From Escherichia coli (lineage in GTDB: Bacteria > Pseudomonadota > Gammaproteobacteria > Enterobacterales > Enterobacteriaceae), in NCBI RefSeq assembly GCF_001677475.2, contig NZ_CP015229.1: a DNA stretch of 64,000 bases. One strand, 5' to 3'. Both the position numbers and the translations under genes were made by a program. Each line of letters opens with the position of its first letter. Positions within the stretch are counted from its first letter, which is position 1. The notes under the pieces are model-generated. The model was not told the origin of the DNA, ran no database searches, and saw only the letters and a list, made by a program, of their open reading frames with translations. Shown piece by piece: positions 8,543 through 13,197 of the stretch.

Positions 8543-9808
8543 TTAACCTGAACGACGACGATTACGCGGAGCGCCAGTACGACGCGGACCATTGCCTGTA
8601 CGCGGGCGCGTGAGGCGCAGCGGTTTAGGCAGATCGGTCATCAATGCGTCCGGATTGTATTTGCTTACCGGAATTGAGTGACCAATATAGGTCTCAATAG
8701 CAGGCAAATTCAATGCATACTCTTCACATGCCAGGCTGATGGAATGACCACTTGCGCCTGCACGACCTGTACGACCAATACGGTGAACGTAATCTTCACA
8801 GTCATCGGGTAAATCGTAGTTAAAGACGTGCGTCACAGCCGGGATATGCAGGCCACGCGCGGCAACGTCGGTGGCAACCAGAATATCCAGATCCCCACGG
8901 GTAAATTCATCAAGAATACGCAGACGTTTTTTCTGCGCGACATCGCCTGTCAACAAACCGACACGATGACCATCTGCCGCCAGGTGGCCCCAGATCTCTT
9001 CACAACGGTGTTTAGTGTTGGCGAAAATAATCGCTCTGTCTGGCCACTCTTCTTCGATCAGCGTTTGCAGCAAACGCATTTTTTCTTCGTTAGAAGGGTA
9101 GAAAAGCTCTTCTTTAATACGGTGGCCCGTTTTCTGTTCCGGTTCCACTTCAATATATTCGGCATTGTTCATCTGCTCGAACGCCAGTTCACGTACCCGG
9201 TACGAAAGCGTGGCGGAGAACAGCATGTTGAGGCGCTGGTTTGCAGGCGGCATACGGCGGAACAGCCAGCGGATATCTTTAATAAAGCCCAGATCGTACA
9301 TACGATCGGCTTCGTCCAGTACCACTACCTGAATGGCACCGAGGTTAATGTGGTTCTGCTTGGCGTAGTCAATTAAACGCCCCGTGGTGCCAATCAGAAT
9401 GTCAACGCCGCTTTCCAGCACTTTCAGCTGTTTGTCGTAGCCATCACCACCGTAAGCCAGACCCAGCTTCAGGCCGGTAGCATCCGCCAGCGGTTCCGCG
9501 TCGGCGTGGATCTGCACGGCAAGTTCACGCGTCGGTGCCATAATTAAGGCACGCGGTTGATTCACCTTGCGATCGGCAATCGCGGGATGAGAGAGAAGAT
9601 AATGAAACGTTGACGTAAGAAACGCCATCGTTTTCCCGGTACCGGTTTGCGCCTGCCCGGCTACGTCACGACCCGCCAGCGTCAGCGGAAGGGCCAGTGC
9701 CTGAATGGGCGTACAGTTATGAAACCCTTTTTTTTCAAGGGCTTCTACAACCTTCGGATGCAGGGCGAAGTCGGAAAACTTCTGTTCTGTTAAATGTGTT
9801 TTGCTCAT
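8543..9808 (-). CDS. rhlB: ATP-dependent RNA helicase RhlB (DEAD-box)
   Basis: 421-aa translation with DEAD-box motifs ([25 protein letters not shown]) and Arg-rich C-terminus. Confidence 0.95.
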
Positions 9809-9938
9809 AGTGTGGTAGAATATCAGCTTACTATTGCTTTACGAAAGCGTATCCGGTGAAATAAAGTCAACCTTTAGTTGGTTAATGTTACACCAACAAC
9901 GAAACCAACACGCCAGGCTTATTCCTGTGGAGTTATAT

Positions 9939-10268
9939 ATGAGCGATAAAATTATTCACCTGACTGACGACAGTTTTGACACGGATGTACTCAAAGCGGA
10001 CGGGGCGATCCTCGTCGATTTCTGGGCAGAGTGGTGCGGTCCGTGCAAAATGATCGCCCCGATTCTGGATGAAATCGCTGACGAATATCAGGGCAAACTG
10101 ACCGTTGCAAAACTGAACATCGATCAAAACCCTGGCACTGCGCCGAAATATGGCATCCGTGGTATCCCGACTCTGCTGCTGTTCAAAAACGGTGAAGTGG
10201 CGGCAACCAAAGTGGGTGCACTGTCTAAAGGTCAGTTGAAAGAGTTCCTCGACGCTAACCTGGCGTAA
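9939..10268 (+). CDS. trxA: Thioredoxin 1
   Basis: Translation from ATG 9939 [41 protein letters not shown]..., 109 aa, WCGPC active site. Confidence 0.97.
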
Positions 10269-10337
10269 GGGAATTTCATGTTCGGGTGCCCCGTCGCTAA
10301 AAACTGGACGCCCGGCGTGAGTCATGCTAACTTAGTG

Positions 10338-10366
10338 TTGACTTCGTATTAAACATACCTTATTAA
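10338..10366 (+). promoter_or_regulatory. Candidate sigma70 promoter for rhoL-rho (-35 ttgact, 17-nt spacer, -10 tattaa)
   Basis: Hexamers read directly from sequence upstream of the rho leader. Confidence 0.45.
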
Positions 10367-10408
10367 GTTTGAATCTTGTAATGTCCAACGCTTCCCGTTT
10401 TATCTTAA

Positions 10409-10510
10409 ATGCGAAGTGAACAGATTTCTGGCTCGTCACTCAATCCGTCTTGTCGTTTCAGTTCTGCGTACTCTCCTGTGACCAGGCAGCGAAAAGACAT
10501 GAGTCGATGA
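10409..10510 (+). CDS. rhoL: rho operon leader peptide (33 aa) within the rho attenuator region
   Basis: Hand translation atg cga agt gaa... gives MRSEQISGSSLNPSCRFSSAYSPVTRQRKDMSR; below the 60-aa cutoff of the ORF track. Confidence 0.8.
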   Translation: MRSEQISGSSLNPSCRFSSAYSPVTRQRKDMSR

Positions 10511-10594
10511 CCGTAAACAGGCATGGATGATCCTGCCATACCATTCACAACATTAAGTTCGAGATTTACCCCAAGTTTAAGAACTCACACCACT

Positions 10595-11854
10595 ATGAAT
10601 CTTACCGAATTAAAGAATACGCCGGTTTCTGAGCTGATCACTCTCGGCGAAAATATGGGGCTGGAAAACCTGGCTCGTATGCGTAAGCAGGACATTATTT
10701 TTGCCATCCTGAAGCAGCACGCAAAGAGTGGCGAAGATATCTTTGGTGATGGCGTACTGGAGATATTGCAGGATGGATTTGGTTTCCTCCGTTCCGCAGA
10801 CAGCTCCTACCTCGCCGGTCCTGATGACATCTACGTTTCCCCTAGCCAAATCCGCCGTTTCAACCTCCGCACTGGTGATACCATTTCTGGTAAGATTCGC
10901 CCGCCGAAAGAAGGTGAACGCTATTTTGCGCTGCTGAAAGTTAACGAAGTTAACTTCGACAAACCTGAAAACGCCCGCAACAAAATCCTCTTTGAGAACT
11001 TAACCCCGCTGCACGCAAACTCTCGTCTGCGTATGGAACGTGGTAACGGTTCTACTGAAGATTTAACTGCTCGCGTACTGGATCTGGCATCACCTATCGG
11101 TCGTGGTCAGCGTGGTCTGATTGTGGCACCGCCGAAAGCCGGTAAAACCATGCTGCTGCAGAACATTGCTCAGAGCATTGCTTACAACCACCCGGATTGT
11201 GTGCTGATGGTTCTGCTGATCGACGAACGTCCGGAAGAAGTAACCGAGATGCAGCGTCTGGTAAAAGGTGAAGTTGTTGCTTCTACCTTTGACGAACCCG
11301 CATCTCGCCACGTTCAGGTTGCGGAAATGGTGATCGAGAAGGCGAAACGCCTGGTTGAGCACAAGAAAGACGTTATCATTCTGCTCGACTCCATCACTCG
11401 TCTGGCGCGCGCTTACAACACCGTTGTTCCGGCGTCAGGTAAAGTGCTGACCGGTGGTGTGGATGCCAACGCCCTGCATCGTCCGAAACGCTTCTTCGGT
11501 GCGGCGCGTAACGTAGAAGAGGGCGGCAGCCTGACCATTATCGCGACGGCGCTTATCGATACCGGTTCTAAAATGGACGAAGTTATCTACGAAGAGTTTA
11601 AAGGTACAGGCAACATGGAACTGCACCTCTCTCGTAAGATCGCTGAAAAACGCGTCTTCCCGGCTATCGACTACAACCGTTCTGGTACCCGTAAAGAAGA
11701 GCTGCTCACGACTCAGGAAGAACTGCAGAAAATGTGGATCCTGCGCAAAATCATTCACCCGATGGGCGAAATCGATGCAATGGAATTCCTCATTAATAAA
11801 CTGGCAATGACCAAGACCAATGACGATTTCTTCGAAATGATGAAACGCTCATAA
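10595..11854 (+). CDS. rho: Transcription termination factor Rho
   Basis: Translation from ATG 10595 [40 protein letters not shown]..., 419 aa. Confidence 0.97.
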
Positions 11855-11872
11855 ATTTGTCTTATGCCAAAA

Positions 11873-11903
11873 ACGCCACGTGTTTACGTGGCGTTTTGCT
11901 TTT
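11873..11903 (+). terminator. Intrinsic terminator downstream of rho
   Basis: Stem acgccacgt / acgtggcgt with gttt loop followed by tttgctttt. Confidence 0.6.
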
Positions 11904-12093
11904 ATATCTGTAATCTTAATGCCGCGCTGGCAATGTTAGGAAAATTCCTGGATTTTGCTGGTGTGTTATGCAATTTGCATATCAAATGGTTAATTTTTGC
12001 ACAGGACTGGTGGGTTCGGAACGGACTTTCCCTTCTGAATAAAGGTCTTCGTGGTTATACTTCTGCTAATAATTTTCTCTGAGAGCATGCATT

Positions 12094-13197
12094 GTGAATT
12101 TACTGACAGTGAGTACTGATCTCATCAGTATTTTTTTATTCACGACACTGTTTCTGTTTTTTGCCCGTAAGGTGGCAAAAAAAGTCGGTTTAGTGGATAA
12201 ACCTAACTTCCGCAAACGTCACCAGGGATTGATACCTCTCGTTGGGGGGATTTCGGTTTACGCAGGGATTTGCTTCACGTTCGGAATTGTCGATTACTAT
12301 ATTCCGCATGCATCTCTCTATCTCGCTTGTGCCGGTGTGCTTGTTTTCATTGGCGCGCTGGATGACCGTTTTGATATCAGCGTAAAAATCCGTGCAACCA
12401 TACAGGCCGCTGTTGGCATTGTTATGATGGTGTTCGGCAAACTTTATCTCAGTAGCCTGGGTTATATCTTTGGCTCCTGGGAGATGGTGCTCGGACCGTT
12501 TGGCTACTTCCTGACGCTATTTGCCGTCTGGGCGGCCATTAATGCGTTCAACATGGTTGATGGCATTGATGGCTTGCTGGGCGGGTTGTCCTGCGTCTCG
12601 TTTGCAGCAATCGGTATGATTTTGTGGTTCGACGGGCAAACCAGCCTTGCAATCTGGTGTTTTGCGATGATCGCCGCCATCCTGCCATACATCATGCTTA
12701 ACCTTGGTATCCTGGGTCGCCGCTACAAAGTCTTTATGGGTGATGCGGGCAGTACGCTGATTGGTTTTACCGTTATCTGGATCCTGCTCGAAACGACCCA
12801 GGGCAAAACCCATCCCATCAGCCCGGTTACCGCTTTGTGGATAATCGCCATTCCGCTAATGGATATGGTGGCGATTATGTACCGTCGCCTGCGTAAAGGC
12901 ATGAGTCCGTTCTCTCCTGATCGCCAGCATATTCACCATTTGATCATGCGTGCCGGGTTTACTTCCCGCCAGGCGTTTGTGCTGATTACCCTTGCCGCAG
13001 CTCTGCTCGCCTCCATTGGGGTGCTGGCAGAATATTCTCATTTTGTCCCGGAGTGGGTCATGCTGGTGCTCTTTTTGCTAGCATTCTTCCTCTATGGATA
13101 TTGCATTAAGCGTGCCTGGAAAGTTGCTCGCTTTATTAAGCGCGTAAAACGCAGACTGCGTAGAAATCGTGGTGGCAGCCCCAATTTAACCAAATAA
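12094..13197 (+). CDS. wecA: UDP-GlcNAc:undecaprenyl-phosphate GlcNAc-1-phosphate transferase (ECA/O-antigen initiation)
   Basis: 367-aa polytopic membrane protein, GTG start, MNLLTVSTDLISIFLFTTLFLFFARKVAKKVGLVDKPNFRKRHQ... Confidence 0.95.
   Translation: MNLLTVSTDLISIFLFTTLFLFFARKVAKKVGLVDKPNFRKRHQGLIPLVGGISVYAGICFTFGIVDYYIPHASLYLACAGVLVFIGALDDRFDISVKIRATIQAAVGIVMMVFGKLYLSSLGYIFGSWEMVLGPFGYFLTLFAVWAAINAFNMVDGIDGLLGGLSCVSFAAIGMILWFDGQTSLAIWCFAMIAAILPYIMLNLGILGRRYKVFMGDAGSTLIGFTVIWILLETTQGKTHPISPVTALWIIAIPLMDMVAIMYRRLRKGMSPFSPDRQHIHHLIMRAGFTSRQAFVLITLAAALLASIGVLAEYSHFVPEWVMLVLFLLAFFLYGYCIKRAWKVARFIKRVKRRLRRNRGGSPNLTK

Follow-up and report, generated by a model that had tools for sequence, protein, structure and literature searches.

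A probably Escherichia-specific reading frame, rhoL, on the conserved leader RNA of rho

Between trxA and rho, Escherichia coli carries a short reading frame, rhoL, that is annotated as the leader peptide of the rho operon. The question raised by this locus is whether the peptide, or its translation, takes part in Rho autoregulation, or whether the part of the leader that works is the RNA on which the reading frame lies. We analyzed the locus in a 64,000-nt stretch of E. coli DNA (contig NZ_CP015229.1, assembly GCF_001677475.2), here called the window, and all positions are counted from its first letter. We favor, with moderate confidence, a reading in which rhoL is an Escherichia-specific ORF, translated weakly and situated upon a conserved RNA attenuator, and in which its peptide is not the effector.

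Identity of the rhoL reading frame

The gene order at the locus is trxA - rhoL - rho - wecA, with rhoL on the same strand as rho:

8543-9808, minus strand: rhlB
9939-10268: trxA, the upstream neighbor of rhoL
10409-10510, plus strand: rhoL ORF, ATG start, 33 codons plus TGA (from the ORF listing, the NF007433 match and the MG1655 coordinates)
10595-11854, plus strand: rho CDS, 419 aa
from 12094: wecA, downstream of rho

The 33-codon ORF that the initial annotation had placed in the rho leader was recovered at these positions with exactly the translation given there, MRSEQISGSSLNPSCRFSSAYSPVTRQRKDMSR. It was also rightly said to fall below the ORF track, the 60-aa default of the ORF lister being longer than its 33 aa. 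The ORF starts 140 nt past the trxA stop (10268), and the rho ATG (10595) lies 84 nt beyond its end. When the 326-nt trxA-rho spacer was dinucleotide-shuffled 5000 times, 40% of the shuffles had an ATG ORF of at least 33 codons on the plus strand, and the share rose to 75% once GTG and TTG starts were allowed. As a bare ORF, rhoL is within chance; what stands above chance is that it is identical with an annotated gene.

Window coordinates equal MG1655 coordinates minus 3,955,822, so that 10409-10510 corresponds to MG1655 3966231-3966332, which is rhoL (b3782); rho starts at 3966417 in MG1655. The ORF has the sequence, position and neighbors of rhoL of E. coli K-12 (b3782, EG12428; WP_001295255.1), with 0 differences from MG1655. 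The window leader differs from that of K-12 by one SNP upstream of the ORF (10383, G for T), 26 nt 5′ of the rhoL ATG, and 10 further differences from MG1655 were seen between 9878 and 12178 (2.3 kb compared). A 331-nt query around the ORF (10270-10600) matched 5425 of 5426 complete E. coli genomes; the best match was 99.7%, and thus no genome of the collection matches this stretch exactly. Twenty E. coli rows were sampled down the ranking as far as the most divergent one (96.4% identity), and in each of them the RefSeq annotation read "rhoL: rho operon leader peptide RhoL". Against NCBIfam NF007433, an equivalog named "rho operon leader peptide RhoL" with a curated cutoff of 85 bits, the peptide scored 95.2 bits over its full length (residues 1-33 of 33), and it also has the location belonging to this family (rho leader, same strand, between trxA and rho). 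A Pfam search with the peptide gave no match. Because of the MG1655 identity, the RefSeq annotation and the NF007433 match, rhoL is already known and named, as the initial annotation had assumed.

The accompanying claim that such ORFs are easily lost in automated annotation held in part. It did not apply to the NCBI pipeline, which annotated rhoL in all the sampled rows, but it applied to other callers: no gene was called at rhoL in 3 of 10 E. coli contigs from non-NCBI pipelines (a mixed collection). Exactly those three contigs carried a call for a 72-aa ORF downstream of rho (11864-12082, plus strand). The 72-aa ORF runs across the rho intrinsic terminator (11870-11897), and its being called is probably an artifact of the gene callers.

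Comparison of the leader among relatives

Rho loci came from two sources, a set with one genome for each species and contigs that encode exact Rho variants, and yielded 35 distinct Enterobacteriaceae leaders sharing the core GTCGTTTCAGTTCTG. The nucleotides under rhoL were nearly invariant from 10443 to 10500. An ATG at the rhoL position was found only in E. coli and E. albertii. The site read GCG, GTG, ACG or TAA in Citrobacter werkmanii, Citrobacter sp. FP75, Superficieibacter, Enterobacter-like strains and several unlabelled genomes, and in three lineages the rhoL frame was without any ATG, GTG or TTG start. The stop in this frame ranged from +26 to +146 relative to the core. Other lineages carried unrelated ATG ORFs in other frames, and approximately half of the related lineages had some ATG ORF across the core, with differing frames; one Citrobacter-like group had a 42-codon ATG ORF in the rhoL frame. 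A leader peptide would be expected to keep its start, frame and stop in the relatives that share the leader, and rhoL did not.

Among 20 representative leaders, variable columns in rhoL were spread over codon positions 1, 2 and 3 as 15:17:16, compared with 2:2:54 in the first 100 codons of rho from the same genomes. Nonsynonymous codon differences from E. coli outnumbered synonymous ones in 17 of 19 rhoL comparisons; the totals for rho were 238 synonymous and 13 nonsynonymous. Against the 85-bit cutoff of NF007433, a divergent E. coli allele scored 87.9, E. albertii 84.4 and the non-Escherichia ORFs 54-73. Only seven rhoL-related peptides came out of a profile-free scan across 1.84 billion representative proteins. 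The three non-Escherichia ones that were looked up occurred on one contig each, with non-ATG starts or in a frameshifted assembly. A RhoL-like peptide beginning MKRIIPGSS (GCA_022437905.1, CP092528.1) was discounted as unreliable because rho on that contig (1990-2769) is full of frameshifts, which suggest uncorrected long-read errors. Judged by these comparisons, the rhoL ORF is Escherichia-specific and without protein-level constraint.

No sensor feature was found in rhoL when we looked for a regulatory codon run and a conserved arrest motif. RhoL has 9 Ser among its 33 residues (27%), scattered and in mixed codons, and evolution of L-serine tolerance has yielded mutations in rho or in the trxA/rhoL spacer (PMC7382830). 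A serine-sensing leader was rejected as probably a coincidence, there being no codon run and no conservation of the Ser residues; the high Ser content arises because C/U-rich RNA yields UCN codons.

Consensus structures of the leader were predicted with RNAalifold:

10389-10418, plus strand: hairpin 1 (CGCUUCC CGUUU...AAAUG CGAAGUG), its outer helix predicted by RNAalifold, local fold -8.9 kcal/mol
10430-10512, plus strand: long composite hairpin of the consensus, covering rhoL codons 8-33 and the stop
10430-10442/10500-10512, 10447-10457/10488-10498 and 10461-10471/10480-10487: the three stacked helices of the long hairpin
10520-10537, plus strand: hairpin 3 (GGCAUGG AUGAU CCUGCC), from RNAalifold, almost invariant
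10557-10584, plus strand: hairpin 4 (GUUCGAGAUUU...AAGUUUAAGAAC), just 5′ of the rho start, pairs mostly invariant

The rhoL AUG (10409-10411) sits in the 3′ arm of hairpin 1, in which alignment pair 54/99 was AU in 9, GU in 7 and GC in 3 leaders and pair 56/97 was UA in 17 and GU in 1. Standard pairs filled 96.7% of the alignment cells in the full set of six leader helices, compared with 33-43% when the partners were slid by 1-3 columns. Five pairs had changed on both sides (a number reached by 10 of 500 shuffles), three of them in the outer helix of the long hairpin, and the covariation score was 0.107 against 0.091 in the shuffles (reached by 1 of 500). Covariation support is modest, since the structure came from the tested alignment itself and most pairs never vary. 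Hairpin 3, being almost invariant, gives no covariation evidence; related forms of it were found in Yersinia and Photorhabdus. The folding energy of the whole leader was not unusual (z = -1.22), and Rfam covariance models gave 0 matches in 10270-10600 at E-values up to 1. Across the whole span of the Rfam search (9700-12300), the only real match was the TrxA 5′ UTR thermometer, RF02773, just 5′ of trxA (9869-9968, plus strand; 78.8 bits, gathering score 58). Taken together, the alignments suggest that the conserved working part of the rho leader is RNA rather than peptide.

Two other candidate frames lie in the leader. A mini-ORF of nine codons (10527-10556, plus strand; ATG ATC CTG CCA TAC CAT TCA CAA CAT TAA, MILPYHSQH) ends 38 nt 5′ of the rho ATG, and hairpin 3 has the AUG of this mini-ORF in its loop. 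The mini-ORF was kept, with the same start, length and stop, in E. albertii, Citrobacter werkmanii, Superficieibacter, two Enterobacter-like strains, Yersinia and Photorhabdus. It was lost in three labelled species, and in 11 distinct metagenome leaders that have the surrounding block there was no ATG at the site (ATC or AAT, for example), several also being without the in-frame stop. We therefore rejected it as a real conserved uORF; since start and stop are lost where the block persists, its conservation is more simply, and probably, that of the RNA block. An ATG at 10523, in frame with rho, would add 24 residues to Rho (10523-10594, plus strand; 443 aa listed). Use of this extension is unlikely, a 2-nt deletion breaking the frame in three lineages.

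Promoter, Rho loading and termination

Three further features describe how the leader may be transcribed and terminated:

10305-10333, plus strand: putative rho promoter (rhoLp), with -35-like TGGACG (10305-10310), a 14-nt gap and an extended -10, TGcTAACTT (10325-10333)
10532-10594, plus strand: C-rich, G-poor tract (20 C and 6 G in 63 nt), including the weak rho ribosome-binding region
10645-10682, plus strand: published Rho-dependent termination zone, 50-90 nt inside rho (PMC7815308, supplementary files 2 and 3)

CTGGACGCCCG and TGCTAA were invariant in the 35 distinct Enterobacteriaceae leaders. A promoter scan gave no flag at 10305-10333, and an evolution study mentions a rhoLp promoter within the trxA/rhoL spacer. 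Because the invariant elements fit a -35 and an extended -10, transcription would start near 10340, which would give a leader of approximately 255 nt. A hairpin past the trxA stop (10283-10323, plus strand; CGGGTG...CGCCCG) overlaps the putative -35; in Citrobacter it reads CGGGCG...CGCCCG, a U-G pair having become C-G, and published Term-seq 3′ ends lie at 10320 and 10323. The trxA transcript seems to end in a stretch that is interleaved with the rho promoter.

By attenuation in the leader, Rho lowers its own production (Barik 1985; Matsumoto 1986, as cited elsewhere). Term-seq with bicyclomycin placed a Rho-dependent 3′ end at MG1655 3966467, which is window position 10645 (Rho score 7.07, marked "Yes"; PMC7815308). 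The same paper lists a Rho termination region at MG1655 3966504, which is 10682 (score 7.8, P = 1.3e-215). In a rho R66S mutant, RNA polymerase ChIP signal within rho was 12-fold higher when normalized to rhoL. The leader has what an attenuator of this type should have, namely length and, ahead of the termination points, a rut-like region rich in C and poor in G. The C/G ratio was 1.5-2.7 in 60-nt windows across 10510-10644. The tract at 10532-10594, which begins 22 nt past the end of the rhoL ORF, was the part of the leader conserved furthest, in Yersinia, Photorhabdus, Acerihabitans and unlabelled metagenome contigs, and it is the most plausible Rho loading (rut) region. According to the reading that we favor, Rho would load on this tract, with the C/U-rich 5′ arm of the long hairpin as a possible second loading site. 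Loaded Rho would then catch the polymerase early in rho and terminate transcription at 10645-10682. Translation of rhoL would be weak and its peptide would not be the effector; if translation mattered at all, ribosome occupancy would open the long hairpin, as a modulatory, lineage-specific layer.

This scheme resembles the published Rho autoregulatory attenuator, which concerns the same locus and Rho-dependent termination in the leader and early CDS (Barik 1985; Matsumoto 1986; for the small RNA SraL, Silva 2019), and the locus indeed has its C-rich, G-poor tract ahead of the zone of termination. In the text that could be reached, those descriptions are RNA-based (5′ UTR, rut site, sRNA pairing) and translation of rhoL is not invoked. 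In Salmonella, SraL pairs with the rho 5′ UTR (Silva 2019, as cited elsewhere), and work on that organism treats the rhoL region as 5′ UTR. Our best predicted duplex with SraL (RyjA) had -25.6 kcal/mol at 10443-10472, within the invariant core. The prediction was set aside as uninformative because shuffled leaders did equally well (mean -26.2 kcal/mol, with 52% reaching the observed value).

The initial annotation had called rhoL an element of Rho autoregulation. For the leader RNA this stands. It is not established for the peptide, which showed no coding conservation beyond Escherichia.

Translation of rhoL and competing explanations

The rhoL ORF is not silent, since a Ribo-RET study reported an initiation signal of 10.87 RPM there, rising to 42.46 RPM (3.9-fold) in low Mg2+; absence of a translation signal, which the initial annotation had named as the result that would count against its claim, was thus not what profiling found. 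The sequence features of rhoL argue for weak initiation. No Shine-Dalgarno pairing was found upstream of its ATG (anti-Shine-Dalgarno energy 0 kcal/mol, compared with a weak -1.4 at the rho start and -5.9 at trxA), and the AUG bases had an unpaired probability of approximately 0 in the local fold ensemble (hairpin of -8.9 kcal/mol).

In the strongest competitor of the favored reading, rhoL would be a genuine leader peptide with a regulatory function, whose translation would open the long hairpin or cover part of the Rho loading region and so set how often Rho terminates before rho. We regard this as possible but doubtful. The annotation and the EcoCyc list of leader peptides, in which rhoL appears, speak for it, as does the Ribo-RET signal with its increase in low Mg2+. 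The ORF also overlaps the conserved hairpin and ends shortly before the C-rich tract, and Term-seq has mapped an RNA 3′ end inside it at MG1655 3966322 (window 10500, plus strand) in LB at OD 2.0 and in M63, that is, in stationary phase and minimal medium (PMC7815308). Against these points, start, stop position and frame were unconserved even in Citrobacter despite conserved leader nucleotides, the codon positions showed no coding signature, and the AUG is paired and without a Shine-Dalgarno sequence. In wild-type cells, RNA polymerase occupancy within rho did not change significantly upon tetracycline treatment (P = 0.1); in the uORF-controlled topAI operon, by contrast, tetracycline relieves termination. 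The papers that could be reached contained no test of rhoL translation by mutation and no start-codon mutant.

In tnaC (tna operon), mgtL/mgtA and toiL (topAI-yjhQ), as at rhoL, a short ORF in a long leader lies upstream of a Rho-dependent termination zone, but rhoL differs in giving no evidence of a conserved ORF, an arrest motif or a sensor motif. The leaders of amino-acid attenuation (trpL, hisL, leuL, thrL, pheL and ilvL) share with rhoL the short ORF in a hairpin leader and the same EcoCyc list. Unlike them, rhoL has no regulatory codon run, and no terminator/antiterminator alternative was identified; a scan of the rho leader found no intrinsic terminator after rhoL. "Leader peptide of Rho autoregulation" is an annotation label, and the interspecies comparison argues against a conserved coding role.

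Several observations sit less easily with the favored reading, in which the RNA is the attenuator and the peptide is not the effector. Initiation at rhoL is detected and induced 3.9-fold in low Mg2+. Deletion of rhoL gives a mild RpoS-related phenotype, though the conserved RNA is removed with it. Regulatory uORFs need not keep their peptide sequence, and one Citrobacter-like group has the 42-codon ORF in the same frame. Covariation in the leader is modest, and both the transcription start and the rut site are predicted. A combined possibility, tentative and rather unlikely in our judgment, is that rhoL is an Escherichia innovation over an older RNA attenuator, in which ribosomes starting at the hairpin-buried AUG, and doing so more often in low Mg2+, would open the long hairpin and alter the access of Rho to the rho mRNA.

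It is improbable that rhoL is a functionless chance ORF, with pervasive low-level initiation as the source of the profiling signal and a name that is a historical label. ORFs of its size were common in shuffled spacers, the scatter of ATG ORFs over the core in differing frames is what chance predicts, and the missing coding signature and poor predicted initiation context would fit as well. Yet every sampled E. coli, and E. albertii too, had kept the ATG and frame, the initiation signal is regulated by Mg2+, and any ribosome there would necessarily disturb the conserved hairpin.

That RhoL is a small trans-acting protein, with the RpoS stress response as one conceivable target, is very improbable: rhoL transposon mutants and the deletion cluster with rpoS mutants and show transiently lower gadB promoter activity, but the peptide is unconserved past Escherichia with mostly nonsynonymous changes and has no Pfam domain. 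The deletion also alters the rho leader, so that an altered Rho level is the simpler cause of its phenotype. An IS2 insertion in the rho leader lowers Rho. One study, which found this phenotype to be mild and transient, terms rhoL "poorly annotated".

E. coli annotation has included rhoL for decades, and so finding it in the window matters little in itself. Its name calls for caution: "leader peptide" implies a translation-coupled mechanism, for which the comparison of sequences gives no support. If the combined possibility were true, the Rho level would follow translational capacity or Mg2+ in Escherichia and not in Citrobacter and the other relatives that have no ATG. Deletions and disruptions of rhoL would probably perturb the attenuator RNA and the Rho level rather than remove a peptide. 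The peptide is limited to Escherichia and evolves like non-coding sequence, and the RNA underlying it is conserved and structured.
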